Assembly: GCF_964213995.1 (NCBI RefSeq)
Contig: NW_027590501.1
Span: 124,001-188,000 of the forward strand
DNA: 64,000 bases
Source of the DNA: Mustelus asterias
Taxonomy: Eukaryota
Reading direction: 5' to 3'
Shown piece after piece: positions 830 to 60,689 of the stretch. The translations under genes were made by a program, and so were the position numbers. The number at the start of each line of letters is the position of its first letter. The first letter of the stretch is position 1. The notes under the pieces were generated by a model. It did not search any database. It saw only the letters and a program-made list of their open reading frames with translations, and had not been told where the DNA came from.

Positions 830-1588
830 TCACTCGTGAACTTGCTGGTGTCTCAGCAGCTCGGATGAAACTCTGAAACGCTTTCCACACTGAGAGCAGG
901 TGAATGGCCTCTCCCCTGTGTGAACTCGCTGGTGTGTCTGCAGGTCAGATGAGTTCGTAAATCCCTTCCCACACTGAGAGCAGATGAATGGTCTCTCCCC
1001 AGTATGAACTCGCTGGTGTATCTGCAGGTGGGATGACCGAATGAATCCCTTCCCACACTGAGAGCAGGTGAACGGCCTCTCTCCTGTGTGACGTAGCTGG
1101 TGTCTCTGCAGGTCGGCTGACTGAGTGAATTCTTGCCCACACTGAGAGCAGATGAACGGTCTTTCCCCAATGTGAACCCGTTCGTGCGTCCGCAGGTTGG
1201 ATGAGTTCATGAATCCCTTCCCACACTGAGAACAGGTGAATGGTCTCTCCCCAGTGTGAACTCGTTGGTGTCTCTGCAGGCTGAATGACCGAGTGAATCC
1301 CTCTCCACACTGAGAGCAGGTGAACGGCCTCTCCCCAGTGTGAACTCGCTGGTGTGACTGCAGGTTGGATAACCGAGTGAATCCCTCCCCACACTGCGAG
1401 CAGGTGAATGGCCTCTCCCCTGTGTGACGTAGCTGGTGTGATTGCAGGTTGGATACCCGAGTGAATCCCTTCCCACACTGAGAGCAGATGAACGGCCTCT
1501 CCCCAGTGTGGCTGCGCCGATGATCTTCCAGCAGGGATGGGTATCTGTATCCCTTCCCACAGTCCACACATTTCCATGGTTTCTCCAT
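830..1588 (-). CDS. C2H2 zinc finger protein, 9 tandem fingers, no KRAB
   Basis: ATG of MEKPWKC at 1588; 252 aa = 9 x 28 aa with HTGERPF linkers; family splice acceptor near 1940. Confidence 0.9.
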
Positions 1589-2075
1589 GGTGCAGGTGTC
1601 CTTACCTCTCTCTTGAGTGAACAATTCATTGAAACTTCGTCCACACACAGAACAAGATTACAGTCTCTACCCGCTGTGAATGGTGTGATATTTATTCAGA
1701 CTGTGTAACTGGTTAAAGCTCTTTAGTCAGTGCATTGGAACACACTCACTCAAGTGTGGCAGTGTGTTGATGCTTTTTCACTCACACTGACATTTCAAAT
1801 CTTTTCAAATCGACAGACTGGACAATCATTTCTCCTTCTGGATTCAAAGTTCGATGGTATTGAGGTCCCAAGGAATATGACTCTGTCAGATCTAGACGTG
1901 AAGTTTGAGATTTCAGCCTGTGATTCCTCTTTCAATATCCTGTAAAATGAGTTTACAAAAGTCATCAGTGTCAGTACAGGATAGAAATTCAGAACAGACA
2001 ATTTCTATGGAACATTCTTTCCTCTCTCATTCCCCAAAAGCTGTAAATCTCCATCCCACACACTCTCTCCCCATT

Positions 2076-2262
2076 CTCAGCAGGTCTGGTAGCATCTGGA
2101 TGGAGAGAAAAGAACTGATGTTTCAGAGCTTTGACAAAGGGTCATCTAGACAAGAAACATCAGCTCTTTTCTCTCCTTACAGATGCTGCCAGACCTGCTG
2201 AGATTTTCCAGCATTTTCTCTCTTGGTTTCAAACTCCTGCATCCGCAGTAATTTGCTTTTAT
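2076..2262. mobile_element. Palindromic short Penelope-derived element
   Basis: ctcagcaggtctggtagcatctg ... cagatgctgccagacctgctgag inverted arms; related copies near 13843, 22215, 51635, 56560, 63705. Confidence 0.6.
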
Positions 2263-3415
2263 AAGGCTGCAGATACCTCCTCCCAAGTAACATGCGTGTG
2301 CCCAAGACATCACCACTTGTTTCCCTTATTTCTTTAGCACCCATGGTGCTCTCCGCAGTAAACACAGAGGAGAAGTATTCATTAAAAATCTCACCCATCT
2401 CCTGTGGCTCCACACACAGATGGCCATACTGATTTTTAAGGGGACCTATTCTCTCTCTAGCCACCCTTTTACTCTTAATATAGCAAAAGAACCTCTTGGA
2501 ATTTTCTTTAATCTTACCTGCCAGATCTATATCATATAGTCAGAGTGATTCACTTGTCCCCGATTGCCTAAACCCAATGTATGCTTCCTTCTTTTACCTG
2601 ACCAGAGCCTCAATGTCCCTGGTCTGCCAGAGATCCCTAAATTTACCATTCTTTCCCTGCATCTTAACAGGAATATACTGCCCCTGGATTCTTGATATCA
2701 CACTTTTAAAACCTTCCATTTGCCAGTCATTCCTTTCCCTTCAAACAAACTCACCTAATCGACATCTGCTAGATCCTGCCTAATGCCCACAAAAGTGGCC
2801 CTGCTCCAGTTTAGGGCCTTGACCTGTGGACCTGTCCTATCTGTTTTCAGAACTATTTTGAAACTATTGGTGCTCCCAATAGTGCTCCCTGACTGACACT
2901 TCAGTCACTTGCTCCACCTCATTTCTTAACTGTCTAATAGAAAGTGAGTCCAGGAATTGATAATGAAAAATAAGGAGCTGGGAGATGAATTGAACAAGTA
3001 TTTTGCCTCGGTGTTCACAATAGAGGATACAGTTAAAACTCAGAAACAGCTGGAAATCAGAAAACAGAAGTGTGGGATGAACTCTGAAAAAGCACAATGA
3101 CCAGGGAAGTGGTCCTCAGCAAACTGTTGGAGCTGTGGGCTGATGAGTCCTCGGGTCCTGCTGGGCTTCATTCTCAGGTCTTAACAGAGTGAGATAGTTG
3201 ATGTGTTGTTCAATTTTCTAAAATTCCCCATCGGCAATTGGATAAAGGGAAACCGGTGGATGCGCTGTACTTAGATTTCCAGAAGACATTTGATGAGGTG
3301 CCATATCAAAGGTTATTGCAGCAAATAAAAATTCATGCTGTGGGGATGACCATTTGGCGTGGATAGAAGATTGGCTAACAGCAAACAGTGGGCAGAAATG
3401 GATCATTTTCTGGTT
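2263..3415. mobile_element. Degraded CR1 LINE fragments, both orientations
   Basis: Minus strand ERIGPLKNQYGHLCVEPQEMGEIFNEYFSSVF; plus strand AWIEDWLT motif. Confidence 0.75.
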
Positions 3416-3780
3416 TAAGAGAGAGAGAGACCTGGGCCAACCTTTCCAGAGTCTGCAGCCTCCCTGGATTCACTTCCTTTATCTTCAGTTGCTGCAAGTC
3501 CCCAATTTCCCCCAGAATGAGAAAAGAAATGGAAAGGTGGAGAAAAGGAAGTGTTTTACTCACAGATGTCGATGTGTTCAATTTTCTAAAGTTCCCCATC
3601 GGGAATTGGATAAAGGGAAACCTTCCGTCGCCATTACCCGCACTGCGCATGCTTCAGGTCCCGCCCCTCATTCACTCTGATTGGTTGGAGGACCAGCCAC
3701 TCCGCACGGTCCTCCAGCCTCGCCCCCTCTTCCTATTGGTCCGGAGCTGCCGTCAATCAGTGCCCGGGCATTGTGATGTG

Positions 3781-4066
3781 GTAAGAAGTTTAACAACACC
3801 AGGTTAAAGTCCAACAGGTTTATTTGGTAGCAAAAGCCACACAAGCTTTCGAGGCTCTGAGCCCCTTCTTCAGGTGAGTGGGAATTCTGTTCACAAACAG
3901 AACATAAGTTCTGTTTGTGAACAGAATTCCCACTCACCTGAAGAAGGGGCTCAGAGCCTCGAAAGCTTGTGTGGCTTTTGCTACCAAATAAACCTGTTGG
4001 ACTTTAACCTGGTGTTGTTAAACTTCTTACTGTGTTTACCCCAGTCCAACGCCGGCATCTCCACAT
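3781..4066. mobile_element. Penelope-like terminal-repeat insertion forming a perfect palindrome
   Basis: Arms 3781-3903 and 3908-4030, loop ataa; TSD cattgtgatgtg(g) at 3769-3781 and 4067-4079; same terminal sequence starts the Penelope fragments at 24768 and 54390. Confidence 0.85.
3929..3974 (+). ncRNA. Putative minimal type I hammerhead ribozyme (mirror copy on minus strand in left arm)
   Basis: cac-CTGAAGA-a-ggggct/cag/agcctc-GAAA-GCTT-gtg; core boxes, stem II and palindromic AAGCTT stem III as described for Penelope-like elements. Confidence 0.6.
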
Positions 4067-4715
4067 CATTGTGATGTGGAGCATGCGCAGTGTCATTGCT
4101 GGCCTTGGCGCTTGTTTGTCCCGGAGAAGCGGAGTCAGCGTTAGGCGGTGGCTGGGAGGATTTGGAAACACTTTGTGGATCCGCAAACCCTTCAGAATCA
4201 TTGTCAGCTCCCTGGTTTGAAGCTGCGGGGCTTCTCCCTCCCTCCCTCCCGGGAACAGGCCCAGGTTAACGGCCCCATCCTGGCTCAGCCACTGGAGGAT
4301 GGTTCACATCAGAGGATGGGGGAGGGGGACAATAAATAAGAGGTTACACTTTGGCCTCAAATCAATGAGGACTCTGATCTCTGGGAAGGAAGGAAACCCT
4401 GGGAGGTGGGCGGGGAGGATTCACAAACACCCGCTGGAGGCCCCAACACCCCCAGTAAAAAGCTGCAGCTCCCGGGTTTGCAGCTTTTTCCCGGGAGGGA
4501 GTTGGGGAAGTTTTGTGGAGACAATTCCCGGCTGGTTCAGTTAGTGGTTCCTGGAGCTCAGAAACCCTGAGTTAGAATCCTGAACCCCACACTGGGTGGT
4601 TGTTTTATGAAATACTTTTTATTTATTAATCATTAAAATATTAATTTGTTTTGAAAAATAATTTTAAAGCATTTGTGAAAATGCCCATTGAAATAGCAAT
4701 TCTCCCAAAGTATTT

Positions 4716-5997: not shown

Positions 5998-6430
5998 ATG
6001 GACAAACCGTGGAAATGTGAGGATTGTGGTAAAGGATTCAATTATCCATCCCGGTTGGAAACCCATCGACACGGTCACATTGGGGCTGGGAAAATGGAGA
6101 AACCATGGAAATGTGATGATTGTGATAAAGGATTCAATTATCTGTACTTGCTGGAAAACCATAGACACAGTCACACTGGAGAGAGGCCATCTGTTCTGTG
6201 TTTGGGAAAGGATTCACTATCTCATCCCACCTGCTGTTACACCAGCAAATTCACACTGAGGAGAGGCCGTTCAGCTGCTCTGCCTGTGGAAAGGGGTTCT
6301 CATGTTCATCCAACCTCAGTGCACATCAGCGAGTTCACACTGGGGAGAGATTGTTCACCTGCTCCTTGTGTGGGAAGGATTTTGCTGGGCCATCCAGTCT
6401 TTGGACACAACACCGAATTCACACAGGATA
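5998..6430 (+). pseudogene. C2H2 ZNF pseudogene, frameshifted and truncated by CR1
   Basis: MDKPWKC.../MEKPWKC... fingers, frameshift near 6190, three more fingers in another frame, then CR1 from about 6430. Confidence 0.8.
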
Positions 6431-7385
6431 TATATAATATATATAAATGATTTGGAGGAAAATGTAACTGGATTGATAGGTAAGTTTGCGGACGACACAA
6501 AGGTTGGTGGATTAGCGGATAGCGATGAGGACCATCAGAGGATACAGCAGGATATAGACCAGTTGGAGACTTGGGTGGAGAGATGGCAGATGGAGTTTAA
6601 TCCGGACAAATGTGAGGTAATGCAGTTTGGAAGGTCTAATACAGATAGGAAATATACAGTAAATGGCAGAACCTTTAACAATATTGATAGGCAAAGGGAC
6701 CTGGGTGTACAGGTACACAGATTACTGAAAGTGGCAATGAGGGTGGAGAAGGTCGTCGAGAAGGTATACGGCATGCTTACCTTCATCGGCTGGGGCATTG
6801 AGTTTAAAGATTGGCAAGTCATGTTGCATAGAACCTTAGTTAGGCCGCACGTGGAATATAGTGTTCAATTCTGGTCGCCACACTACCAGAAGGATGTGGA
6901 GGCTTTGGAGAGAGTCCAGAAAAGGATGTTGCCTGGTATGGAGGGCATTAGCTATGAGGAGAGGTTGGGAAACTTGGTTTGTTCTCACTTGAGCGATGGA
7001 GGTTGAGGGGAGACCTGATAGAAGTCTACAAGATTATGAGAGGCATGGAAAGAGTGGATAGTCGGAAGCTTTTTCCCAGGGTGGAAGAGTCAATTACTGG
7101 GGGGAATAGGTTTAAGGTGCGAGGGGTAAAGTTTAAAAGAGATGTACGAGGCAGATGTTTTACACAGAGAGTGGTGGGTGCCTGGTATTCATTGCCGGGG
7201 GAGGTAGTGGAAGCAGATACGGTCTTGACTTTTAAGCGGCGTCTTGACAAGTACATGAATGAGATGGGAATAGAGGGATATGGTCCCTGGAAGGGTCGTG
7301 GGTTTTAGTTAAGTCGGGCAGTATGGTTGGTGCAGGCTCGATGGGCCGAAGGGCCTGTTCCTGTGCTGCAATTTTCTTTGTTCTT
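6430..7385 (+). mobile_element. 5'-truncated CR1 LINE
   Basis: YINDLEEN...KFADDTK RT motif, ORF2 C-terminus, 3'UTR ending tttgttctt. Confidence 0.92.
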
Positions 7386-7899
7386 AGTACACAGGCCAAT
7401 TTATCTTTCTGGGGTCAGTGTGTCTGAGAGGTATGCAACTGGAAAACAATTTCCATTCACCTCCTGCATTGCTGCAGTATATATAGATATTGTTCTCACT
7501 CTGCCAGCAGGGCTGTGGGATTAATTGGACAGATCTTAAAGACAGCCCGACTGGGCAGGATGAGCCAAGTGGTTTCCATCTGTGATGTATCATTCCATAA
7601 AACACAATATTGAGCATCAGGAGAAAGAAAGTGAAAGAAACCAGTCTCTGTGGGATTTCCCCAACCAGTATGAGCACCTTCAGGAGAGCAGAGAGAGAGG
7701 AAACCAGTGGGAAAAGTTTTTAAAATTCAGGGTATTCCCATAGGAGAGCACTGGTTTAAATCAATTTTAGAAATAGAGAATGGCAGCGCACAAATTCCGA
7801 GGAATGCATTTTTAAAAATTAATTGATCTTAATTGCACAAGATAATTTTCTATTATTGTCTTTGATTGACAATGACGTCTTTAATTCCCAGGTGCCCCT

Positions 7900-8300
7900 G
7901 CGGGTGTGAAAGTGTCCTCTTCATTCCACAGGAGCCTATTGCGCAGGCGCGGTGCGAGATCTGGAGCGTGCGCAGTGTCACTTTGCCCAGAGCCCTATGA
8001 ATGCGGGAGATGCTTTTTTCAGCAGGTGAGTCGGTGGGGCTGCGGGAGAAATGGAGCCGGGAGTCGTGGGGTAGGGAGGGAGCTATGGCTTCACAAACAC
8101 CCGCTGTAGGCCGCACGGCCCGAATAAGACCCTGCAGGTCCCGGGTTTACAGCTCCCAGGCTTTTATCCCGGGAGCAGGCCCCGGTTATCGGCCGCCATC
8201 TTGTTTCAGCGGGGAAGGAGAGCGCATGCGCTGCTGTCGGTGGCGGATCACAATGGGCGTGGTTTCAGGGGCTGGTTCAGAACCTCTGTCTTCAGAGGGA
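7900..8300 (+). promoter_or_regulatory. CpG-rich promoter / first exon for ZNF at 9703
   Basis: High CpG, gcgcatgcgc (NRF1-like), cgccatctt (YY1-like), cag|gtgagt donor near 8025. Confidence 0.55.
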
Positions 8301-8303
8301 CAA

Positions 8304-8528
8304 TAGAATCATAGAAACCCTACAGCACAGAAAGAGGCCATTCGGCCCATCGAGTCTGCACCGACCACAATCCCACCCAGGCCCTACCCCCATATCCCGA
8401 CATATTTTACCCGCTAATCCCTCTAATCTACGCATCACAGGGGCAATTTTTTTAGCACAGCCAATCGACCTAACCTGCACATCTTTGGACTGTGGGAGGA
8501 AACCGGAGCACCCGGAGGAAACCCTCGC
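8304..8528 (-). mobile_element. Partial HE1-type SINE
   Basis: Tail and V-domain only; abuts the Tx1 fragment. Confidence 0.85.
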
Positions 8529-8913
8529 AGAGAGGGGTGGGTCAGGATGGCGACCTCCTCGTGAACCTGGGCCTGGCAAAGCGCGCCATTTATAGGTCCA
8601 GGCAGCGGGCGATCGAGGGGGCCGTCCATCCTGACTGTCTGCCCCTCTACTGTGGCTACATTCGCGGCCAGGTGTCCCTGGAGAGGGAACATGCGATGTC
8701 CATGGGCGCGGTTGACGCCTTCCGCCCCCGTTGGGCACTGCAGGGGTTGGGATGTGTTATCGATCCTAATAATCACATTATGATTTGATGTTTTTAAGTT
8801 TCCTTTGTATTTTGATTTTTGTTTGGGCTGCTCCCCCTCCTTTTGGGGAGCTGCCCCTTTTACTTTGTCCTGATTTAACTTGAGTTTGTTTATTTGGTTT
8901 GACCTTAAAAAAA
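8529..8913 (+). mobile_element. Tx1-clade LINE 3' end (ORF2 C-terminus, 3'UTR, A tail)
   Basis: DLLVNLGLAKRAIYRSRQRAIEG...DCLPLYCGYIRGQVSLEREHA...DAFRPRWA resembles Tx1 ORF2 C-termini; T-rich UTR then A7. Confidence 0.7.
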
Positions 8914-9513
8914 GGCCAACATCTGTGAGTAAAACACTTTTTCTTTTCTCCCCCTTTCCATTTCGTTTCTCATTCTGGGGGAAATTGGGGACTTGCAGCA
9001 ACTGAAGGGAAAGGAAGTGAATCCAGTTGGTATGTTCCACACATTGTTAGTCCAGTCAGATAGACATATATCTGTCTGGCAGCCTGCATGGAGATTTCCA
9101 GCTCTCTGTGTCCAGGACAGGAAGCAGTGAGCATGGATCTATCAATCAGCCTCAATCAGAGGGTGAATATTAGATACAGCAGAGTGAGAATGGAGGGAGA
9201 GTGTGTGGGATGGACATTTGCAGCTCTTGGGGAATGAGAGAGGAAAGAATGTTCCATAGAAACTAGAATCGTCTGTTCTCAATTTCTATCCTGTACTGAC
9301 AGTGATAACCTTTGTAAACTCCTTTTACAGGATATCAGAAGTTGAGGATTTTACAGACAGAAATCTCAAACCAAACATCACGTCAACATCTGACAGAGTC
9401 ACTCAATTCATCGGGACCTGAATATCTTCGGTCTTTAAATCCAGAAGGAGAAATGTTTCTCTGTTCTATCGGCTTCAGCAGTCTTTAAACATCAGTGTGA
9501 CTGGAACAGGACT

Positions 9514-9702: not shown

Positions 9703-10545
9703 ATGGAGAAACCGTGGAAATGTGGGGACTGTGGGAAGGGTTGCAAAACCCCCTCTGAGCTGCAAATTCATCGACGTATTCACACTGGAGAGAAGCCATA
9801 CACCTGTTCTGTGTGTGGGAAGGGATTCACTCGGTTATATCATCTGCAGCGACATCGGTTGGTTCACACTGGAGAAAGAGCATTCATGTGCTTTGAGTGT
9901 GGGAACGGATTCGCTCATTTACCCGATCTGCAGAGACACCAGCGCGTTCACACTGGAGAGAGACCATTCATCTGCTTGGTGTGTGGGAAAGGATTTATGC
10001 AGTTATCCAATCTGTCAAAACACAAAGTCACTCACAGCAATGAGAAACCCTTTAAATGCTCTGACTGTGGAAATGGTTTCAAAAGCTCTCGGGAACTGAC
10101 GATCCACCAGCGGATTCACACTGGGGAGAGACCGTTCAGCTGCTCTCACTGCACAAAGACATTTAGAACATCATCCCACCTGCGGGAGCACCAGCGAATT
10201 CACACCAGGGAGAGACCGTTCACCTGCTCTGTGTGTGGGAAGGGATTCACTCATTCATCCAGCCTGCTGAGTCACAATCTCACTCACACCCAGGAGAGAC
10301 CCTTTAAATGCTCTGACTGTGGCAGTGGTTTCAAAAGTTCTCGGGATCTGGTTATCCACCAGCGCATTCACACTGAGGAGAGACCGTTCAGTTGCTCTCA
10401 CTGCACAAAGAAATTTAGAACATCGTCCAGCCTGCGGGAGCACCAGCGAGTTCACACTGGGGAGAGACCGTTCACCTGCTGTTTGTGTGGGAAGGGATTC
10501 ACTCAGTCATCCAGCCTGCGGAGACACCAGCGAGTTCACAAATGA
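9703..10545 (+). CDS. C2H2 zinc finger protein, 10 fingers
   Basis: Intact 280 aa ORF from MEKPWKC; acceptor ttttacag|g at 9330; internal repeat of a finger block (FKCSDCG/FSCSHCTK). Confidence 0.92.
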   Translation: MEKPWKCGDCGKGCKTPSELQIHRRIHTGEKPYTCSVCGKGFTRLYHLQRHRLVHTGERAFMCFECGNGFAHLPDLQRHQRVHTGERPFICLVCGKGFMQLSNLSKHKVTHSNEKPFKCSDCGNGFKSSRELTIHQRIHTGERPFSCSHCTKTFRTSSHLREHQRIHTRERPFTCSVCGKGFTHSSSLLSHNLTHTQERPFKCSDCGSGFKSSRDLVIHQRIHTEERPFSCSHCTKKFRTSSSLREHQRVHTGERPFTCCLCGKGFTQSSSLRRHQRVHK

Positions 10546-37742: not shown

Positions 37743-37785
37743 GTCCAAGGGGTGCCATTCATGGCTGACCCCCCATGGACGACCT

Positions 37786-42622: not shown

Positions 42623-42625
42623 TTT

Positions 42626-47174: not shown

Positions 47175-47477
47175 GAGAAACCCTACAGTGCAGAAAGAGG
47201 CCATTCGGCCCATCGAGTCTGCACCAACCACAATCCCACCCAGGCCCTACCCCCATATCCCTACATATTTTACCCGCTAATCCCTCTAATCTACGCATCC
47301 CAGGACACTCAGGGGCAATTTTATTTTAGCAGAGCCAATCAACCTAACCGGCACATCTTTGGACTGTGGAAGGAAACCAGAACACCCAGAGGAAACCCAC
47401 ACAGACACGAGGAGAATGTGCAAACTCCGCACAGACAGTGACCCAAGCCAGGAATCGAACCCAGGTCCCTGGAGCTG
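47175..47477 (-). mobile_element. HE1-type V-SINE
   Basis: Near-consensus copy. Confidence 0.9.
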
Positions 47478-47719
47478 TGAAGCAGCAGTGCTAACCACTG
47501 TGCTACCGTGCCGCCCGTTTTGGGGATGGAAAATATTTTCTGTTGGTCTTGTTAGTGAAAAGACAGGGTAGTGGGATGAGCTGATTCCCTTGTAGAGAAC
47601 CAGCAAATGCATGATGGGTTAGTCATTTTCTGTAGTGTAATAATTCAATGTTTCTGTGGCTTAATGAAAAAGAGACCAATTCTGGAGGCCAGGAACTAAC
47701 TTCTGGAATCAATGCCCAC

Positions 47720-48180
47720 TGCCTCCAATCGAGGTGGCGGCTGCACATGCGCCCTGTTGCCCATTGCCCCCTATAAAGATGGCCACCGTCCTGCTGTCCA
47801 TTGCCCCCAATAAATATGGCGGTCACGCTGCCCATTGTTCTCGAAAGATGGAGGCTGCAAAATCGGTCAGGCAGGGCCTCGGGCGTCTTATTTGTGGTTT
47901 GAAGCTAATATCCGACGTTTATGAAAGCTCCGCTTCCTATACCGGGTGCTTATGAGTCCTCCCTTTTGACTCTCAGGCTCCATTTAACCTCACTCACCCG
48001 GTGTCTCCAATCAGTTTCTACTCTCCCTGCTGCTCCGACACCACCCCATCCGACCACTGCCTACACCGCACTGCGCATGCTCCAGTCAGAGAGGCACTGA
48101 GTCTGCGCAATGATCTCCAGTATTGAAGATAGGGTATCGTCACCCTCTCGGTGCACGCTGGGTAATGGCACCGCCATTGC
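47720..48180 (-). promoter_or_regulatory. Probable promoter / first exon of the ERV-interrupted ZNF
   Basis: CpG-rich, actgcgcatgctc motif, YY1-like aagatggc repeats, minus-strand donor cgg|gtgagt near 47997. Confidence 0.55.
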
Positions 48181-49109
48181 CACTTGATATTGTCAAATAC
48201 AAATACATCTTTTGTGGTCCATGATCATAATGACTGGCCTGGCCGAGAATGGCTTACTCCTGTTCCTATTTTCTATGAAAATATATTTAAACAGGCTTAT
48301 TTTAAATTAATTAACACCTTCCTTGAAATAGTGTGCACAATCATTTGTCAGTCTGGGAATTTAAACTTGCTCTTTCACTTTCAGTCAGGAACACGTCCCA
48401 GTTTCACACTAAACTTTGATTTGACAGCATGTTTCCAGCCTTCACCGTTGTTCAAAATTGTTGCAAACTCTCGGCAGCTGTGACGGTATTTGTAAAGACA
48501 GAGTCAATGTTTCCAGTCCAATATGACTCTTCAGTTCCAAAACATTAGCTCTGTTTCTGCAGAGATGCTACCAAACCTGCTTTGTTTTTATTTCCGATTT
48601 CCAGCATCTGTAATATTTTGATTTTCTTTCACAATTGTTCACCTGACTCGAAACATAGTTATAAAAGAGTCTTCTGTTCCATGTTTAGGAGCTCTGGACT
48701 ATAGAAAAGAGCAGTTGGGACACATTTCTTACACACCTCAGGATTAACCCACTTTGCTGTCAGTGAAGAGAGATGAGAAAGTCCAAAGTGCTGTTTGTCC
48801 CTCTCAGTGTGACCCTATGGCAGGAACAGACTGCAGTTCTGTTCCTGCTGTGTGAACCTCCCCCAGATTGCCCCTTCTGAGCTCCAGCCGGCAATGTTAA
48901 ACATTCAGCTGGGAAAGACGAACATCTGCAACTATGTATTCAAATATCACTGTTTTATTTCACATTTATTTAGAATATTAAACTCCAGTCCAGTTACAGG
49001 GATTATTAACATAATCAGAAACAAACTCCAAATATCAGAATGAACATAGTCCAGTCCTGAATGTGATTCACAGCAGCAGCAATAACAGCAGAATCCAGCC
49101 CCTGTAGTA

Positions 49110-49800
49110 ACTTATGAACTTGCTGGTGTGTCAGAATGTGAGGTAACCGAATGAATCTCTTCTCACATGGAGCAGGTGAACAGCCTGTGAATGTGTTTGT
49201 GTATCAGCAGATACATTTTGCATTTAAATCTCTGCTCACAGTCAGAAGTTTGAAAAAGTTCCTTATCAGTGTGAACAAGTTGATGTGCAGTGAAGTGGGA
49301 TGACTGAGTAAATCTCTTGCTAAACATGGAGCAAGTGAACAGCCTCTCCCAGAGTGAGTGCACTGGTGGACACTGAGTTCACATGTCCAGCTGAACCCAG
49401 TCCCATAGTGAGAGACTCTGGATGGTCTGCTGTCAGTGTGAACCTGCTGATAGCACATCAGATTCATAGAAATTTTAAAACATTTCCCACAATCCAGACA
49501 TTTGAAACACATTCCATCAGTGTGAACTCACTGGTGTGTTAACAAAACGAATGAATCAGTGAATTGCTTCCCACACATGGAGCAGGTGAATGACCTCTCC
49601 CTGGTGTGAACTCTCTGCTGTTGCTGCAGGATGGACAATCGCTTGAACCTCTCCCTGCACTGAGAGCAGATGAGTGGAGTGGAACGGACTGAATACACTG
49701 GTGAACCATCAGTGAATGTGGGTTTTTAAAGCTCCTGTCACAGTCTCAGCATTTAAATCCTCTCTCTTCAGTATGAACCCACTGGTGTGTGTGGAGACTG
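49110..49800 (-). pseudogene. Degenerate C2H2 ZNF pseudogene
   Basis: Finger remnants in several frames ([26 protein letters not shown]) with indels; family 3'UTR at 49000-49110. Confidence 0.85.
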
Positions 49801-50054
49801 GATGGAGAAAAGTGGGCGTTCGGGGCTCAGACAAGAGGGATGTTTAGAGACAGTTTGGCCCATTGGGCTAATGGAATGGAGCAAAGCAACAGAGACAGCT
49901 GATTGGATTATCTCAATCTTCAGTGACAAAGTACTTCCATGAGCTCCTCACACTTGTTGTTGGAGGTGAGGATAGAGGAAACAGGGGAGAGCCCTTCAAA
50001 AGGAACTGACTTGTATTAGAGTTATTAAAAATATTCACGATGTGAATATTTTTC

Positions 50055-51300
50055 GAACTTGATCGAGTTTTTCGAGGAAGTGATGAAGATGATTGATGAG
50101 GGTAGGGCAGTGGATGGTGTCTACATGGACTTCAGTAAGGCCTTTGACAAGGTCCCTCACGGCAGACTGGTGCAGAAAGTGAAGTCGCATGGGATCAGAG
50201 GTGAGCTAGCGAGGTGAATACAAAACTGGCTCGGTCAAAGAAGACAGAGGGTAGCAGTGGAAGTGTTTCTGAATAGAGGGCTGTGACAAGTGGTGTTCCT
50301 CAGGGATCAGTGCTGGGACCTTTGCTGTTTGTAATATATATAAATGATTTGGAGGAAAATGTAACTGGATTGATTAGTAAGTTTGCGGACGACACAAAGG
50401 TTGGTGGATTTGCAGATAGCGATGAGGACCATCAGAGGATACAGCAGGATATAGATCAGTTGGAGACTTGGGCGGAGAAATGGCAGATGAAGTTTAATCC
50501 GGACAAATGTGAGGTAATGCATTTTGGAAGGTCTAATACAGATAGGAAATATACAGTAAATGGCAGAACCCTTAAGAGTATTGATGGGCAAAGGGATCTG
50601 GGTGTACAGGTACACAGGTCATTGAAAGTGGCAATGCAGGTGGAGAAGGTAGTCAAGAAGGCATACGGCATGCTTGCCTTCATCGGCCGGGGTATTGAGT
50701 TTAAAAATTGGCAAGTCATGTTGCAGCTTTATAGAACCTTAGTTAGGCCGCACTTGGAATATAGTGTTCAATTCTGGTCGCCACACTACCAGAAGGATGT
50801 GGAGGCTTTGGAGGGGGTACAGAAAAGATTTACCAGGATGTTGCCTGGTATGGAGGGCATTAGCTATGAGGAGAGGTTGGAGAAACTTGGTTTGTTCTCA
50901 CTGGAATGACGGAGGTTGAGGGGCGACCTGATAGAAGTCTACAAGATTATGAGAGTCATGGACAGAGTGGATAGTCAGAAGCTTTTTCCTAAGGTGGAAG
51001 AGTCAATTACTAGGGGGCACAGGTTTAAGGTGTGCGGGGCAAGATTTAAAGGAGATGTACGAGGCAGATTTTTTACACAGAGAGTAGTGGGTGCCTGGAA
51101 CTCGTTGCCGGGGGAGGTAGTGGAAGTGGATACGGTAGTGAGTTTTAAGGGGCGTCTTGACTTTACATGAATAGGATGGGAATAGAGGGATATGGTCCCT
51201 GGAAGGGTAGGAGGTTTTAGTTCAGTCAGGCAGCATGGTCGGTGCAGGACCATGGAGGGCAGAAGGGCCTGTTCCTGTGCTGTAATTCTCTTTGTTCTGT
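50055..51300 (+). mobile_element. Young 5'-truncated CR1 LINE
   Basis: [26 protein letters not shown] motifs and 3'UTR. Confidence 0.95.
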
Positions 51301-51329
51301 AAACATTTCTCTGGATATTTAAATAAAAA

Positions 51330-52620
51330 GAGTTATCCAAGTGAATGTTGGTCCAAGAGAAAGTGACTCTGGGGAATTAATAATGGAAAGTGAGGAGATG
51401 GCAGATGAATTCAACAGGTACTTTGTATCAGTCTTCACTATAGTTTAGTACTCTACCCGATAGTATCGAGGATAGAAGTAATATCTCATCAGGGTGTGGA
51501 AGGGAGAGAGGAACTCAGGAAAACTGCTGTCACTTATGAAGTGGTACTGAGCAAATAGTTGGAGCTGTCGGCTGACAAATCCCGGACCCTGATGGACTTC
51601 ATTCTCGGCTCTGAAAAGAAGCAGCTCGTCAGATAAAAGCAAAGTATTGCAGATACTGAAAATCTGAAATAAAAACAGCAAATGCTGGAAAGACTCAGCA
51701 GGTCTGGCAGTACCTGTGGAGGGAGAAACAGAGTTGACATTTCGAGGCCACATGGCTGTTCTTTAGCTGAAGAGGGGTAGAAATGACTGGTGAGATAGTT
51801 GATGCATTGTTTTAATTTTCCAAAATTCCCCGGTTTTGGTGGAAGTTCCATTAGATTAGAAAGTAGCAAATGCAGCTCCTTTATTCAAAGAAGGAGAGAG
51901 ACAAAAAGCAGGAAACTACAGGACAGTTAACTTAACATGCCAGAGGAAAAATGTTAGAAGCTATTATTAAATACGTTACAGCATGGCAGTGAGATAAAAT
52001 CAGGCCATGAAGAAGAGTCAACGTGGTTTTGAGAAAGGGAAATCATATTCAACCTATTTTCTCAGTTCTTTGAATGAGTCACATGTGCTGTGGATAAAGG
52101 GGAACCAAAGGTGCAGAAAGGTGAATGTACTGAGATTTCCAGAATGCATTTATAAGCTATCACATCAAAGGATATTGTGGAAAATAAAAGCTCCTAGTGG
52201 GGCGGGGGGAATGGTAACATATTGGCACGGAAAGGAGATTGGGTAGTTAACAGGAAACAGGATTGGCATAAATGGGTCTTTTTCTAGTTGACTGGATGTG
52301 ATGAGTGGTGGGCCACGGGTCAATGCTGGGACCTCAACCTTTTTACCATTTATATAAATGACTCAGATGAAGGAATTGAAGGTATGGTTGCTAAATTTGC
52401 CTGTTCAGGTACACTGAATTTGGGAGAATTTAGCATGGGCAATGCACCGAACCAGCACATCTTTTGGAATGTGGGAGGAAACCAGAGCACCCGGAGGAAA
52501 CCTACGCAGACACGGGGAGAACGTGCTGACTCCACAAGACAGTGACCCAAACCGGGAATCGCACCCAGTCCCTGATGCTGTGAGGCAGCAGTGCTAGCCA
52601 CAGTGCCACCATGCCACCCA
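51330..52620. mobile_element. Old CR1 fragments with short Penelope-derived insert and partial V-SINE (52400-52619, minus)
   Basis: Degenerate CR1 RT motifs; SINE head and V-domain. Confidence 0.7.
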
Positions 52621-52689
52621 GTTGGACTGAACAATGTTCATTCTGAGAGTCAGGTTTTGTTTCTGACAGTAATAACCATCCGAACTCAA

Positions 52690-54100
52690 CTGGATAAATA
52701 TGAAATTAATCAACTTTTTTTCAAAATTATTCTTCTGGATTTTTTCTTTTGGAGAGCGATTACACTATTTCTGCTGTGAAATGAGAACTATTGTCATTCT
52801 CCATCCATTTCAGGAAGCCTCATCCAGGATTTTAGCTATTGTGTCTGCATCATTTTTACAAACAGGAAAGGTTTCAATCCACCAGGTAAACATAGCTGTA
52901 ATTAGCAGGATATACCAGTCTCCTCTTAGTGTGGAGAGTGGGCCTGTATAATCAAGCTGCAGTGTTTCCCAGGGAACATCAATAATGTGGAACATGTTAA
53001 TTGGGACAATGCATTTTGCAGAATCTGATTAGTTTGAACACATGAGGCACAGCTTCAGGTGCTGATGGACATTCTGATACATCCTCAGCCACTGATAGTA
53101 TGATCATGTTGTATAATATTGAGGAGTCAAAAAACAAGAAATACGCCTTGCTTTGATCCATCAAATATACTAATCCCTTTCTAAGCCATCGAGTTGTGAC
53201 TGAAGTCAAAGTTAAACCATATTTGTGAAAGAAAACTTCATTGTGTCAGATGAGTGAGTCCTTACTTGCTGTGAATGATGAGGGAAAGTTTTCTCTATGG
53301 TGCCAACCCTTTTTACCCACAGTCATCTTAGGTCAGTGTCCTGACAAGTTTTTAAATGACATATAACTGGAGTCTGTCGTACCGGTCCCAATGATTGTGT
53401 TTTGGGTGGATCCCATGGAATCTCCTCGAGAGCAGCTTTCCTGGTGAGTCAGTCTGCCTGGTTATTACCATCACTCCCTTCACTAACTCCTGCTGCTGAT
53501 CCACCTTCACCTGGCAAATAGCAATTTATCCTGGACATCCAGTAACATTCCCAATCATTCAGAGTTTGGAGTGGTGAGCAGTGGTTTCCTTTCTGCTGTG
53601 GAGAAGCTGTGTTTCCTCCCCCAGAGGGGTAGGTTTTCTGAGGGAATTACAACCAACGTAGCTTTCAGAATATTTGGTGATTATATCGGTAACAGTTTGA
53701 AGGGCTGTGACCGCAATAACCTCAGAGTTCTGGGCTAACTGTTGCGATTGTGGTGGATATTTAGTAAGGATACTACAATTGTTGTGGAGAATCAAACACA
53801 CAGCTCCACTCTGATACAAACCTTGTTCATAAAACCAACACCTGATCGCATAAACCCCAGTGCAATGTAATAGTTATTTGTCTTTAACAGGTCCATTGGA
53901 CATGACCGCTTTTGCCTGACTGAGACGTAGGATTCTTTCATACTGAAACATCCCAGCCAAGTAATAATTATGAAGATTCAGGACGTGAATGCTTTTTCTT
54001 TGTAATTCCATAATTCAACCATTGGCCCTTTAGGATAATGTCACTGCAGTATTTGGGGTCTGCAGAAATATACAATTAAACTCTGCCAGGCACTTTATCT
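52690..54100 (-). pseudogene. pol: Degenerate retroviral-type pol relic (RNase H and integrase core)
   Basis: PWETLQLDYTGPL...WIETFPV integrase motif; AQNSEVIAV.AL and GNNQAD RNase H-like motifs. Confidence 0.7.
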
Positions 54101-54389
54101 GCTCAATGGGCACTTTATATCTTCTCAATGAATTAGGCAATCAATCTTTCCACAGGGCTGATTGTGTCTGAGAACTATCCGACTGGAAAACTTTTTCCAT
54201 TCAGGCCTCAGAATACTACAGCAGATATACATTGTTCTGGCTGTGGAATTAATTGGATAGATCTTCCAGAGAGCCAGTACAGACATAATGAGCCAAATGG
54301 TTTCTATTTGTGCTGTATCATTCTGTAAAAGAGTGAATAATCAGCATCAGGGACAGAGAGAGGAACCAGTGACTGTGCGATTGAACCCA

Positions 54390-54977
54390 GTAAGAAGTCT
54401 GACAACACCAGGTTAAAGTCCAACAGGTTTATTTGGTAGCACAAGATTTCGGAGTGTTCCTTCTTCTTCAGGTGAGTGAAGAGTTCTGTTCACAAACAAG
54501 GCATACATCGAGACAGACTCAATTTACAAGATGATGGTTGGAATGCGAGTCTTTACAGGTAATCAAGTCTTTACAGGTATAGACAATGTGAGTGGAGAGA
54601 GGGTTAAGCACAGGTTAAAGAGATGTGTATTGTCTCCAGCCAGGACAGTTACTGAGATTTTGCAAGTCCAGGCAAGTCGTGGGGGTTACAGATAGTGTGA
54701 CATGAACCCAAGATCCCGGTTTAGGCCGTCCTTGTGTGCGGAACTTGGCTATCAGTTTCTGCTCAGCGACTCTGCGTTATCGTGTATTGTGAAGGCTGCC
54801 TTGGAGAACGCTTACCCGAAGATCAGAGGCTGAGTGCCCATGACTGCTGAAGTGTTTCCCGACAGGAAGAGAACACTCCTGCCTGGTGATTGTCGAGCGG
54901 TGTTCATTCATCCGTTGTCGTAACATCTGCATTGTCTCCCCAATGTACCATGCCTCGGGACATCCTTTCCTGCAGCT
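54390..54977 (-). mobile_element. Penelope-like element 3' fragment
   Basis: Homologous to 24768-25360; degenerate hammerhead at 54440-54478. Confidence 0.88.
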
Positions 54978-54979
54978 TA

Positions 54980-56320
54980 TAAGAACATAAGAACATAAGA
55001 AATAGGAGCAGGAGTAGGCATCTAGCCCCTCGAGCCTGCCCCGCCATTCAATACGATCATGGCTGATCTGAAGTGGATCAGTTCCACTTACCCGCCTGGT
55101 CCCTATAACCCCTAATTCCCTTACCGATCAGGAATCCATCTCTCCGTGATTTAAACATATTCAACGAGATAGCCTCCACCACTTCAGTGGGCAGAGAATT
55201 CCAGAGATTCACCACCTCTGAGAGAAGAAGTTCCTCCTCAACTCTGTCCTAAACTGACCCCCCTTTATTTTGAGGCTGTGCCCTCTAGTTCCAGCTTCCA
55301 GGGCGGCACGGTAGCACAGTGGTTAGCACTGCTGCTTCACAGCTCCAGGGTCCCGGGTTCGATTCCCGGCTTGGGTCACTGTCTGTGTGGAGTTTGCACA
55401 TTCTCCTCGTGTCTGCGTGGGTTTCCTCCGGGTGCTCCGGTTTCCTCCCACAGCCCAAAGATGTGCGGGTTAGGTTGATTGGCCAGGTTAAAAATTGCCC
55501 CTGAGATGTGTAGGTTAGAGGGATTAGTGGGTAAAATATGTGGGGGTAGGGCCTGGGTGGGATTGTGGTCGGTGCAGACTCGATGGGCCGAATGGCCTCC
55601 TTCTGCACTGTAGGGTTTCTATGATTCTATGATTCTATGATTCCTTTCTAAGTGGAAAGAATCTCTCCACTTCTACCCTATCCAGCCCCTTCATTATTTT
55701 ATATGCCTCTGTACGATCACCCCTCAACCTTCTAAACTCCAACGAGTACAAACCTAATCTGCTCAATCTCTCCTCATAATTTACACCCCTCAACTCCGGT
55801 ATCAACCTGGTGAACCTTCTCTGCACTCCCTCCAAGGCCAATCCTTTCGCAAGTAAGGGGACCAAAATTAGGAGCAGAAGGAGGCAAGTTCAGCCCTTCG
55901 AGCCTGCTCCGCCTTTCAATCAGGTCATGGCTGATCTCTCCCTGGTCTCAAATCCACTTCCCCACCTGTTCCCCATATCCATCTTTCCCTTTCTTTTTAT
56001 CAGAAATATGTCTATCTTCCTCTTGAAACAATTCAATGATTCAGACACCACCTCGCTATGTGGCAGCGAGTTCCACAAATTCACCATCCTCTGAGAAGCT
56101 CCTCATCTCAGTTTTAAATCTATAGCCTCGCAACCTATACCTGTGACCTCTTGTTCTAGATTGTCCCATAAGAGGAAACATTTGCTCTACATTTACTTTA
56201 TCAATCGCTTTTAACATTTTATGTCCTTCGATTAGATCCCGCTCATCCTTCTAAACTCCAGCGAGTATAGTCCAAACTGCTTAATCTCTCCTCATTTGTC
56301 ATCCCCTTCATCCCCAGAAT
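54980..56320 (-). mobile_element. CR1 3' fragments with nested HE1 SINE (55301-55641, plus)
   Basis: (aagaacat)n tail, ALEGVQRRFTRLIP motif. Confidence 0.85.
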
Positions 56321-56923
56321 AAATACTCAATTAACTGTTTGTCGATTCAATCAGGCTTAAGTGTTGAATGATTCTTCTGAGTTCATTCTCCCAAACAGTT
56401 CCTTTACCACAACCATTACCTCTCCCTTTGCCTTTTGTTCCAGGATGTTTTTGTCATTTATTCTCATCCGACCTCTAACCAATCCCTAACTTTCCATTTT
56501 GTTCCACCTGACCCTCCTCCATTTCTCACCAGAATCAAACCCATCACATTTCTCCCTCTCTTTAGTTCTGAGGTAGAGTTACATTGGACATGAAACGTTA
56601 ACTCTGTTTCTCTCTCCACGGATGCTGCCAGACCTGCTGTGTTTTTCCAGTTCTTTCTGTATTTACTTTCGATCTACCTGTAGTGATGGGAAAAACATTA
56701 TTTACCACCGAGGATAAAATAAATGTTTTTCAACAGCATTTGTGAATCCTTTCGGTGGAAATGTACTCTCTCAGGCTCAAAGAAATTTAGCCCACTGGAA
56801 GCAAAGTTGTGAGACCGGCCAGTCCAGCAGAAAGAAACCCTCCGACCCTCCCACTTCCCAAACTGTCAGAATGAACATGGTTCTGTCCTGAGTGTGATTA
56901 ACAGCAGAATCCAACACCTGTAA

Positions 56924-57514
56924 TCACTTGTGAACTCGCTGGTGTGTCCGCATGTTCGATAATTGAGTGAATCCCTTCCCACAATCAGAGCAGGTGAACG
57001 GCCTCTCCCCAGTGTGAACTCGCTGGTGTCTCCTCAGGTCAGATGAATCACTGAATCGCTTCCTGCATTGGGAGCAGATGAACGGCCTCAGCCCAGCATG
57101 AACTCGCTCGTGTTTCCTGAGGTCAGACGAATGACTGAATTGCTTCTCACATTCAGAACAGGAGAATGGCTTCTCCCCAGTGTGAACTCGTTTGTGCGTC
57201 CGCAGGATGGATGAATTACTGAATTCCTTCCCACACACAGACCAAGTGAATGGTCGCTCCCCAGTGTGAATTCGCTGGTGTGACTGCAGGTGGGATAACT
57301 GGGTGAATCCCTTCCCACAATTAGGACAGACAAATGGTCTCTCTCCAGTGTGAATTCGCTGGTGTGTCTGTAAAATGGATGAATTACTGAATCCCTTCCC
57401 ACAAACAGGGCAGGTGAACGGCCTTTCCCCTGTGTGACAACGTCGATGAATTTCCAGGTGACTCGGGCAACAAAAACGTTTCCCACAATCCCCACATTTC
57501 CATGGTTTCTCCAT
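56924..57514 (-). CDS. C2H2 zinc finger protein, 7 fingers (one with C>W)
   Basis: ATG of MEKPWKC at 57514; open frame. Confidence 0.88.
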   Translation of the reverse strand: MEKPWKCGDCGKRFCCPSHLEIHRRCHTGERPFTCPVCGKGFSNSSILQTHQRIHTGERPFVCPNCGKGFTQLSHLQSHQRIHTGERPFTWSVCGKEFSNSSILRTHKRVHTGEKPFSCSECEKQFSHSSDLRKHERVHAGLRPFICSQCRKRFSDSSDLRRHQRVHTGERPFTCSDCGKGFTQLSNMRTHQRVHK

Positions 57515-58589
57515 GGTGTCAATGTCCTTGTGTCTCTCCAGGTTTGACAATCAGTTGAAGCCTCGTTCACACATACAACCAGTGTGCAGTCTCTCCCTGC
57601 TGTGAATGGTGTGATGTTGCTTCAGCCAATGTAACTGATTAAAGATCCTTTCACAGTCACTGCATTGTACACTCTCACTCAGGTATCATTCTCTGTACTG
57701 TTCCAGTCACACTGATGTTAAAATCTTTCACAGCAGACAAAAAGGACAAACATTTCTCCTTTTAGATTCAAGATTGATGATATTCAGCTCCCGATGAATG
57801 GAGTGACTCTGTCAGATCCTGATGTGCTATCTGCTTTGAGAGTTCTGTCTGCGATATCTCCTCCCCTAATATATTGTAAAAGAGTTTACAAACGTAATCA
57901 GTGACAGTACAGAATAGAAATTCAGAACAGAATTTTAATTGCGAAGGAACATTCATTCCTCTCTCATTTATCGAAGGCCGTAAATATCTGGACCACACAC
58001 TCTCTATTCACATTCTGCTGTATTTAATACATACCCAATAACACAATGATGTATAATTATACAGTTCTCTATTACATGATTAGAGATACATAGGGCTGTG
58101 AGGAAGTATTTTATTTCGACAGCTAGTGTTGCTGACCTGAAACTCTCTGCCTACCAGCTTGATGGAAGCAGAGAAGGTGAATAATTTCAGAATGAAATTG
58201 GGGGGGGGGCACTTGAAGGAAATAACCTGTAGGGGGACTGGGGATGTAGAGAAGGAATGGGAGTGACTGGATTGTCCTACAGAGTGTTAGCATAGGCTCA
58301 AATTACTGAATGGACACCTTGTGTCGTAATGACGCTGACTGGAAATGCATATTGTAGCTACAGTAGGATAATACAAGATTAGAAATAATTAATGTATTTT
58401 GTTACAAATAATATATCTAATCTGTACCATATTACAAGACTAGACGTATCTCTGTCCTATCTTAATTTAAATGTCAGCCTATCCTGGAGAAACCATCTCT
58501 TTAATTGTGAACATTAGGAAAGAGACCATCCTTTTACCCAGACAAATAAATGTGTCAGACTGAGAGAGCGAAAGGATGTCAATGTCTTG

Positions 58590-59355
58590 AAGAGAGAGAG
58601 ACCTGGGGCAACCTTTCCAGAATCTGCAGCCTCCCTGGATTCACTTCCTCTCCCTTCAGTTGCTGCAAGTCCCCAATTTCCCCCAGAATGAGAAAAGAAA
58701 TGGAAAGGGGGATGAAAGAAAGTGTTTTACTCACAGATGGTGGCGACAGGAGGAAGTTTCAGTCTGTTGTGCACCTCAATCTGAGTATCACAAAGCCCGA
58801 TTGGCTGAAGGACCAGAGTCCTTCCGGTCTTTTCCCATTGGCCAACACCTCAGCACGAAGGTCAGAAGGCGGGCTGCCCCGCTCATGCGCAGTGTCGCCT
58901 CTCCACTGGACATGCGCAGTCCCAGGCCGGGGGGAGGGGGTGATCACCAAGAGGCTTCTCGCTCTGGCCGGAGCCGCCAGCCGGTTGCCTGGAAACCTTG
59001 GCTGGAGGAGGTGCAGGGGGAGGGGAACAATGGGTGGGGGCGGGACTTCCGTGTCCGCGCGCCCGGGCCTGCGCACTGGCACCCCATGACGTCATTGTGG
59101 AAGAGACTGATTCCTGTTGGCTGATTCAGGCAGGGCTCCATTGTGACGTCACAATGCGGAAGCTCGATTGATTCAGATTCAGACTCAAACTCCCTCCTCT
59201 GGGCAACATCTGGGAGGAAATCAATGTTTCCCCCTTTCCATTTCTTTTCTCATTCTGGGGGAAATTGGGGACTTGCAGCAACTGAAGGGAAAGAAAGTGA
59301 ATCCAGGGAGGCTGCAGACTCTGGAAAGGTTGGCCCAGGTTTCTCTCTCTCTTAA
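58590..59355. promoter_or_regulatory. Bidirectional CpG-island promoter flanked by inverted intron-1 modules
   Basis: 58590-58712 is an inverted copy of 59228-59355; CCAAT, catgcgca x2, two TGACGTCA sites, gacttccg ETS-like site. Confidence 0.78.
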
Positions 59356-59708
59356 AGACATTGACATCCTTTGCAATGTTCCACAGGAACTAGAATTGTC
59401 TGATCTGAATTTCTATCTTGTTCTGACAGTGATGACTTTTGTAAATTCTTTTTACAGGATATTAGAAGGAGATGATTTGCTGATAGAAATGTCAAGATCT
59501 AACATTCACTCAATTCATGGGAGCTGAATGTCATCGGTTTGAATCTGGAAGAAGAAACGTTTATCTGCTTGAGTTGGGTGAACCATTGGTGTGAACAGAA
59601 AAGCATCGAGGCCCGTGCAACCCGAGTGACAGTGTCCCAGTCCCGAGTGACAGTGTTCCAGTGCACATATTGTGAAAACTGCAGGAGAGACAGAAAGACA
59701 CTCAGATC

Positions 59709-60689
59709 ATGGAAAAAGCATGGAAATGTGAGGACTGTGAAAAGTCATTCCGTTCCCCATCAGTGCTGGAAATTCATCGACGCAGTCACACCGGGGAGAG
59801 GCCATTCACCTGCTCCAATTGTGGGAAAGGATTCACTCGGTTATCGATCTTGCTGACACACCAGCGAGTTCACACCGGGGAGAAGCCATTCACCTGCTCT
59901 GATTGTGGGAAGGTATTCACTCAGTCATCGCACTTGCTGATACACCAGCGAGTTCACAATGGAGAGAGGCCATTCACTTGCCCCGTGTGTGAGAAGGGAT
60001 TCAGCGATTCATCCACACTGCAGACACACCAGAGAGTTCACACTGGGGAGAGGCCATTTATCTGCTCCATGTGTGGTAAAGGATTTGCTCAGTCATCCAA
60101 CCTGTATTCACACCAGCGAGTTCACACCGGAGAGAGGCCATTTCCCTGCTGTGTGTGTGAGAAGGGATTCAGTAACTCCGCCAACCTGCTGAGACACCAG
60201 CAACTTCACACTGGGGAGGCTTCCTTCACCTGCTTTGAGTGTGGTAAAGGATTCAGTGATTCATCCAACCTATTTTCACACCAGCGAACTCACACTGGGG
60301 AGAGGCCATTCACCTGCTTTCTGTGTGGAAAGGGATTTAGTCAGGCATCCAGTCTGCAGACACACCAGCGAGTCCACACCGGGGAGAGGCCGTTCACCTG
60401 CTCAGTGTGTGGCAAGGGATTCAGTGATTCGTCCAACTTTATTTCACACCAGCGAGTTCACACTGGGGAGAGGCCATTTAACTGCTTTGTGTGTCAGAAG
60501 GGATTCAATCGATTATCTAACCTGCTGACGCACCAGCGACTTCACACTGGGGAGAGGCTGTTTGCCTGCAATGAATGTGGAAAGGGATTCACACGATCAT
60601 CCCACCTGCTGAGACACCAGCGAATTCACAAACGATTACAAGCATTGGATTCTGCTGTTATTGCTGCTATTAATCACACCCAGAACTGA
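59709..60689 (+). CDS. C2H2 zinc finger protein, 11 fingers, C-terminally extended
   Basis: Intact 326 aa ORF; acceptor tttacag|g at 59457. Confidence 0.92.

Follow-up and report, generated by a model that had tools for sequence, protein, structure and literature searches.

Head-to-head genes for predicted finger-only zinc-finger proteins on putative two-way promoters in the shark Mustelus asterias

When related zinc-finger (ZNF) genes stand in divergent pairs around CpG-rich islands, and no effector domain is apparent next to their fingers, is the pair the unit in which such a family amplifies, what do its products consist of, and might the family be an analogue of the transposon-repressing KRAB-ZNF clusters of tetrapods? 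These questions are raised by a 64,000-nucleotide stretch of Mustelus asterias DNA (contig NW_027590501.1, positions 124,001 to 188,000, forward strand, of the 3.68-Gb assembly GCF_964213995.1; G000:C469:124001-188000), hereafter the window, positions in which are counted from its first letter. The reading preferred here, to which a probability of roughly 60% is given, joins several parts: a finger-only family whose start would derive from a finger linker, two-way TATA-less promoters, copying within multi-gene blocks, and exchange of partners at the conserved modules.

All four divergent pairs of an earlier, sequence-gazing account of this stretch (the original prediction) are indeed present, and the MEKPWKC start ascribed to most of their genes is found in five of the eight, the remaining three differing (MDKPWKC, MEKAWKC and another). 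The window holds 11 ZNF loci, as three unpaired ones had gone unlisted: the solo genes 9703+ and 35847-, each with an island of its own, and a decayed copy near 49 kb (49,000-49,750, minus strand). As 5998+ is frameshifted and cut by a long interspersed element (LINE), and 15829-, which is decaying, has lost one Cys in three of its fingers, pairs 3 and 4 alone have two intact members. Genome-wide, the exact 21-mer encoding MEKPWKC occurs 2,800 times (control, 0), and one 18-mer from the donor module is found in 897 places; the closest named relatives, by identity, of the 59709+ protein are shark proteins (70-73%). No description of the family was found in the papers searched (subscription papers, Repbase and Dfam lay outside that search): the accessible part of the zebra-shark genome preprint (10.1101/2022.10.17.512540) does not mention zinc fingers, and in that of the whale-shark paper (PMC8455134) the only remark is that KRAB-box families were lost in cartilaginous fishes. 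Unless indicated otherwise, the counts below refer to 129 loci, called by finger arrays plus leader profile in a 1.46-Mb sample from four contigs, window included; 80 of these have an ATG-initiated open reading frame (ORF) with at least five fingers.

That the products are finger-only, as had been proposed, is likely and well supported as a genomic prediction. Among the 141 of 170 upstream sense frames (at least 42 residues) scanned with Pfam, which excluded 26 provirus frames, three frames of short interspersed elements (SINEs) and the stretch 5' of the provirus, no KRAB, SCAN, BTB or ZAD was present, the matches being finger remnants and weak chance hits; a genome-wide search for PF01352 (KRAB) gave 0 of 76 candidates, which, lacking a positive control, is not counted as absence. 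The leader between acceptor and ATG (350-370 nt) translates in consensus into an acidic spacer of about 40 residues followed by three dead fingers, with the start codon occupying the Gly position of a TGEKP linker and ACC lying directly 5' of it in 51 of 70 cases (an ACC-ATG-G context), and a second start class begins earlier in the same spacer, at MEGKSTVHSGEK. None of 85 leaders opens into the fingers, and in 69 of them a stop in frame lies no more than 12 codons from the ATG; leader mismatches show no codon periodicity (0.177/0.175/0.179 by codon position), and 72 of 386 indels are multiples of three. With the leader closed in this manner, an exon spliced to the shared acceptor cannot add a domain. 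Of the 80 ORFs, 62 begin six residues ahead of the first Cys, and in 51 a single residue follows the last His.

An effector might nevertheless be hidden as a short domain (cf. FiNZ) on an upstream exon spliced near the ATG, or be confined to a minority of full-length members. The decayed spacer does imply an ancestral upstream coding exon, some annotated shark and ray models (P0091, P0059) carry an acidic N-terminal extension in frame with it, and FiNZ, at 28 residues, falls below the 42-residue cut-off used; however, the stops so close to the ATG, where the consensus shows no pyrimidine tract, the two own-genome matches to the P0091 extension that include the spacer yet stop before the fingers, and the failure of the window spacer (X at stops) to find any longer protein, in what was a weak search, make this a very improbable explanation. 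The P0091 extension, which has no relative among 158 candidates and no Pfam domain, was rejected as a conserved effector, being a singleton that seems to read through the acceptor region.

The finger frame is clearly under purifying selection. In 22 independent close paralog pairs, pN/pS (nonsynonymous to synonymous differences, each as a proportion) is 0.11 for the Phe, 0.26 for the Leu, 0.37 for the linker and 0.66 for the contact positions, Cys and His being invariant by construction and excluded as evidence; pooled, the contact residues vary about twice as fast as the rest (0.66 vs 0.34), and 1,242 fingers display 526 fingerprints. Purifying selection on the structural residues makes it likely that the proteins are made. 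Such values also bear on a birth-and-death expansion without any transposon role, in which the proteins would be made but loosely constrained, and most copies would be redundant by-products of a duplication-prone region. That fewer than half of the loci (58 of 129) have stayed intact, that the contact ratio stays below 1, and that the region is rich in LINEs and SINEs and hosts a young provirus would all suit this explanation, whereas the selection on frame and structural residues, the faster change at contact positions and the correlation, reported in PMC10547256, between ZNF and retroelement numbers across animals whatever the accessory domain would not, and it is considered unlikely.

As to the arrangement of the genes, head-to-head order is commoner than chance: 46 of 124 adjacencies are of this type (42 being tail-to-tail and 36 tandem) against 31.7+/-2.9 expected, with none of 20,000 strand shuffles reaching 46, and within 7 kb there are 30 against 16.1 (again 0/20,000). 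Three regions picked for start-codon density alone (80 loci) behave likewise, with 29 head-to-head adjacencies vs 19.6 expected and, within 7 kb, 14 vs 7.2 (p=0.0014). Donor modules less than 1.5 kb apart were seen in 12 of 25 divergent, 0 of 20 convergent and 0 of 21 tandem adjacencies, and among the first 100 genome-wide hits, which overlap the sample in part, in 6/24, 0/24 and 0/49, respectively. Sixty loci belong to a close pair and 69 do not; paired genes are intact more often (34/60 vs 24/69, p=0.014), but of the 30 close pairs only 11 have two intact members.

Each pair surrounds one promoter island, as had been described (3561-4236, 18671-19046, 30636-31236 and 58876-59226; GC>=0.55 and CpG observed/expected>=0.6 in 200-nt windows), pair 2 having one additional island over a SINE in an intron. 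The 12 tight spacers measure 393-761 nt (GC 0.53-0.63, CpG observed/expected 0.43-0.77), and NRF1-like (21 vs 0.9 in dinucleotide shuffles), CCAAT (42 vs 10) and ETS motifs (CCGGAAG; 28 vs 2.3) are present in all 12, with TATA in none of them. The spacers are therefore likely to be two-way promoters, well supported by their sequence; of the shared-promoter claim, spacing and motifs stand, and transcription in both directions is what we infer from them. The donor module thought to be common to the genes, catct·gtgagt (the dot marking the splice boundary), has five exact sites in the window and serves four of the eight paired genes (3568-, 18519-, 19067+, 58739-), the fifth site (8920+) belonging to a solo gene. 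In 59709+ the GT of the module is gone, and 5998+, 29823- and 32819+ use another one, CCAG·GTTAAC (at 4265+, 30608- and 31061+), which brings the first-exon module types to at least two. The acceptor module fared better, being present in all eight paired genes, but the exact ag·gatat is found at only four of the eight acceptors. Four unstranded contig sets (presumed RNA, other organisms) cover both first-exon sides and the leader on 18440-21400 and are nearly empty across the pair 2 promoter centre (18737-18934); neither pattern is counted as evidence.

The CCAG·GTTAAC module lies within a block of 392 nt, the seven full copies of which in the sample are 96-99% alike, with the attached leaders that were compared at 74-83%; genome-wide there are 1,019 candidates, and the 40 scored, which were selected for identity, are all at least 99% alike. 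A free mobile element was considered and rejected for this block: a ZNF leader lies within 1.5 kb downstream in 26 of the 30 top copies, and the block is therefore read as part of the gene. Downstream of its copies (4067-4458, 30415-30806; L141-L170) there are three classes of junction, and further upstream lies a tandem repeat with a CRE. First-exon modules that are kept at 96-99% identity where the genes are at 74-83%, and that moreover collect retrotransposon insertions and precede leaders with about three upstream ATGs, might suggest that the main importance of the clusters is at the level of RNA or chromatin, the two-way promoters trapping retrotransposons and yielding small RNAs, with the proteins being secondary; given the clear protein-level selection and the absence of any Rfam match, for the block or anywhere else in the window, little credence can be attached to this.

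Some further features of the modules deserve mention. A conserved upstream ATG (TGAATGAAGATT) in the first-exon module (e.g., about 19008-19071, plus strand) opens a frame of about 21 codons that, if transcribed, would end just inside exon 2, and the leaders carry about three further ones; translational control is possible. The pair 1 promoter contains a palindromic insertion (3781-4066; 250-nt arm, 99% self-inverted) flanked by duplicated CATTGTGATGTGG, and a duplicated second acceptor module with leader start is found at 20153-20323 (plus strand), in the intron of 21400+.

Where the original prediction did not hold was in taking the pair for the unit of amplification: whole pairs are copied, but inside multi-gene blocks, and over longer times the partners change. 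Besides pairs 3 and 4, the block found here takes in both solo loci of the minus strand and, since its left edge cuts through pair 2, only the right gene of that pair; its size rests on two contigs, and more segmental copies (C118, C89, C173) exist. With 40 candidates scored for each comparison, pair 3 has nine other whole copies at 98-99% and 17 matches limited to the left gene plus promoter, and pair 4 has five whole copies at 94-98% (one of them at 94%) and 27 half-copies that share the promoter and right gene at 86-93% and start at the left donor module, the homology breaking near 58,730-58,745 and the left leader, where listed, being only 73-76% alike. Four of these breaks adjoin listed ends of a Tx1-type retrotransposon. 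In the sample, recent duplicates mostly comprise a single gene or a gene plus promoter, and when the partner of a gene's nearest relative was sought among the three closest relatives of that gene's own partner, it was there in 4 of 44 cases (2.9+/-2.3 expected, p=0.33), i.e., no co-phylogeny; nearest-neighbour partner calls are noisy, 11 of 109 leaders being partial. Elsewhere in the genome, an 8.2-kb inverted duplicate (98.5%) holds one ZNF gene (G000:C71:6507318-6515473 and 6569652-6577808).

Could a co-regulated two-gene cassette, staying together as it amplifies, still be the unit of a KRAB-free defence system? The recurrence of whole pairs, the strong head-to-head bias and the better preservation of paired genes would be expected of one. 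Both whole copies followed outward, however, belong to blocks that span at least 49 kb and have an edge through pair 2, the 17 and 27 half-copies have other partners, genes 95% alike in the sample have partners 74-76% alike, both partners are intact in a minority of close pairs, and more than half of the loci stand outside close pairs, so that such a cassette is quite unlikely. Likely, judging from the copies compared, is instead that blocks amplify, and that the genes acquire new partners through exchange or conversion at the conserved modules.

The preferred sequence of events would start from an ancestor with a longer coding region, comprising the spacer and three more fingers, which would have decayed into the 5' leader, new ATGs being recruited twice (the T-M-EKPW class and the MEGKSTVHSGEK class). 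A promoter that is two-sided would lead to a gene landing on its free side being retained more often, and near-identical exon-1 modules could serve as points of exchange and conversion.

The same modules are the target of a non-LTR retrotransposon (LTR, long terminal repeat) with a zinc-knuckle ORF1 and an endonuclease-reverse transcriptase ORF2, the 3' ends of which first resembled variant first exons. An RVT_1 match and clusters of RVT_1 plus zf-RVT point to an L1/Tx1-type ORF2, and the element is presumably of Tx1 type, judging from the start of ORF2. Exact 3' ends on the ZNF exon-1 target CCAACATCTGTG number 55 vs 202 ends overall, a share of about 23-27%, the 202-end pattern missing ends with C at one flank position; in the sample, 17 of 30 ends lie on the exon-1 module, with copies from 28 to over 3,000 nt long, and some on-target copies may have been carried along in segmental duplications. 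That every copy is on target was considered and rejected (91 of the first 100 listed are dispersed). Three short copies are flanked by a 15-nt target duplication that copies GTGAGT, and the element would therefore end up in intron 1. Full copies are found at G000:C12:54519850-54541000 (L089-L092, three in tandem) and C23:11307488-11315008. A second element (1.9 kb; period 1.4-2.1 kb), ending in AAAAAGAAA and with 221 such ends, stacks in tandem on the ZNF target at G000:C71:13573638-13583032 and elsewhere lies on another target, TCCYTGATTGAG (C19:82812974-82832933, in 168-nt repeats; C13:31835402-31841679; C26:13561941-13568051), and a tRNA-Gly-like sequence, judged by eye, directly precedes a Tx1 stub and donor module at G000:C469:260250-260340 (L020).

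The leader of 35847- harbours a young provirus (36900-43452), with LTRs (36900-37730 and 42622-43452) that are 99.9% alike and an env-like frame matching TLV_coat; as it is absent from both segmental copies, it was inserted after the duplication.

Table 1. Coordinates and strands of the features annotated in the 64,000-nucleotide window
Feature	Position	Strand
Finger-only ORF, pair 1 left, MEKPWKC, 9 fingers, intact	830..1588	-
Acceptor module tttt/acag·gatat heading the ~350-nt fossil-coding leader of gene 1588-	1890..2067	-
Exon-1/donor module, predicted donor catct·gtgagt	3426..3572	-
Pair 1 promoter island: NRF1, CCAAT, GC boxes; palindromic repeat inserted at 3781-4066	3561..4236	.
392-nt promoter/exon-1 block with CCAG·GTTAAC, 99% identical to 30806-30415 and at least 39 further genomic copies	4067..4458	+
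Broken ZNF copy, pair 1 right, frameshifted, LINE cut from about 6430	5998..6450	+
Island 5' of solo gene 9703+: promoter-like part, SINE and Tx1 sequence	7876..8801	.
Tx1-type 3' fragment, about 400 nt, 88%, ending directly on exon-1 target CCAACATCTGTGAGT	8527..8921	+
Solo finger-only ORF, MEKPWKC, 10 fingers	9703..10545	+
MEKPWKC ORF, pair 2 left, 3 canonical fingers, others without a Cys, decaying	15323..15829	-
Pair 2 putative two-way promoter with island 18671-19046 and diverging donor modules (minus, 18558-18402; plus, 19014-19188)	18402..19188	.
Tx1 3' stub, 11 nt, pair 2 promoter	19052-19062	
Part of block of at least 49 kb, continuing ~5.5 kb beyond the window, collinear at 95-99% on C115 and C471, provirus absent there	20459..64000	.
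Exon-2 leader, decayed acidic spacer and three dead fingers, non-coding	21050..21399	+
Finger-only ORF, pair 2 right, MEKPWKC, 8 fingers, intact	21400..22074	+
Finger-only ORF, pair 3 left, MEKPWKC, 11 fingers, intact	28903..29823	-
Pair 3 promoter: 392-nt block (minus) and 125-nt mirrored copy (30977-31097, 90%); no catct·gtgagt	30415..31236	.
Finger-only ORF, pair 3 right, 6 fingers, non-MEKPWKC start, intact	32819..33352	+
Solo ZNF ORF, second start class, provirus in leader	35847..36884	-
Decayed ZNF copy, numerous stops and frameshifts	48972..49757	-
Finger-only ORF, pair 4 left, MEKPWKC, 6 canonical fingers, intact	56924..57514	-
Pair 4 putative two-way promoter with island 58876-59226 and diverging modules (minus, 58768-58597; plus, 59175-59344, without its GT)	58597..59344	.
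Finger-only ORF, pair 4 right, MEKAWKC, 11 fingers, intact	59709..60689	+

How does this family compare with those already described? With KRAB-ZNF (KZFP) clusters it shares clustered tandem C2H2 arrays on one exon and TGEKP-type linkers, but it has no KRAB exon, its leader is closed, its copies run to thousands rather than hundreds, and its head-to-head bias is strong (the words head-to-head, bidirectional and orientation are absent from the main text of PMC10547255). The cyprinid FiNZ-ZNF genes (PMC10547256) are likewise an independent, KRAB-free, lineage-specific expansion in repeat-rich clusters with a two-exon layout; according to the text available of that paper, however, they have an upstream exon coding for 28 residues, show positive selection in 4 of 7 clades, are backed by knock-down evidence and repress young elements, whereas the shark upstream exon looks non-coding, and the aggregate contact pN/pS is 0.66. 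A FiNZ-type upstream coding exon is contradicted indirectly, any exon joined at the shared acceptor meeting stops or frameshifts (no FiNZ model was searched). Sharks are not mentioned in the main text of PMC10547256, the supplementary species tables of which may count shark ZNF ORFs. With the comparisons to both KRAB and FiNZ having failed, the family is therefore a variant of lineage-specific tandem-ZNF expansion and a member of neither.

In architecture, the predicted products resemble human ZNF146/OZF (Only Zinc Fingers) and ZNF507, which have fingers and no other recognisable domain and which, in the portion of PMC8896011 available, bind LINE-1 and are not needed for L1 silencing in HEK293; those, however, are single conserved genes, whereas the shark family numbers thousands. 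The spacers share with human bidirectional promoters, as outlined in PMC3082894, a length below 1 kb, GC richness, the lack of TATA and NRF1, NF-Y and GABP motifs, but the human pairs usually consist of unrelated genes and are conserved as pairs, while the two sides in the shark are paralogs, the partners of which change. The retrotransposon, in turn, has the fixed 3' junction, 5'-truncated copies and tandem stacks of the target-specific Tx1L, Keno, Kibi, Koshi and Tx1-Mar with SINEU (PMC4494074), and exceeds the threshold given in the accessible text of that paper (more than 20% of ends on one target); the targets listed there are snRNA genes, microsatellites and transposons, whereas in the shark the element targets the first-exon module shared within a family of protein-coding genes.

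Several points weigh against the preferred reading. No more than 58 of the 129 loci are intact; contact residues do not exceed a pN/pS of 1 in the aggregate of the 22 paralog pairs; and, since paralogs are not independent, the p-values from shuffling and the counts of motifs err on the favourable side. The partner test, with 22 pairs from 1.46 Mb, has low power, and the pairing does leave some trace, as four pairs share an old architecture in which one gene class faces the class carrying the 392-nt block. Donors, acceptors and transcript starts are predictions from sequence, and the named donor may not be the sole or main one, as a single contig (from a presumed RNA run of a related organism) joins 19148, about 76 nt past the catct·gtgagt donor, to the acceptor. 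Finally, loss of ZNF146 did not de-repress L1 in HEK293 cells, going by the part of PMC8896011 consulted, so that even the nearest precedent is one of binding for which silencing is unproven.

That the family acts against transposons is plausible, and we would put a little below even odds the more specific idea that the proteins bind young repeats sequence-specifically and act by occupancy or through finger-bound partners, like ZNF146/ZNF507, rather than through a fused repressor. Doubtful is a larger scenario in which sharks would have lost an effector exon and built about 3,000 finger-only defence proteins on interchangeable two-way cassettes, homogenised while the arrays re-pair, with retrotransposons inserting in the first exon, duplicating the splice site and riding the promoters of their own repressors.

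Across animals, large ZNF families go along with transposon load, and KRAB and FiNZ, the two vertebrate cases that have been studied well, carry an exon for an effector. Thousands of members that apparently lack one, in a third vertebrate lineage, would allow the following to be asked: is binding alone sufficient, or are finger-bound partners? The family also shows head-to-head order being upheld while partners change, and is itself a target of retrotransposon insertion.

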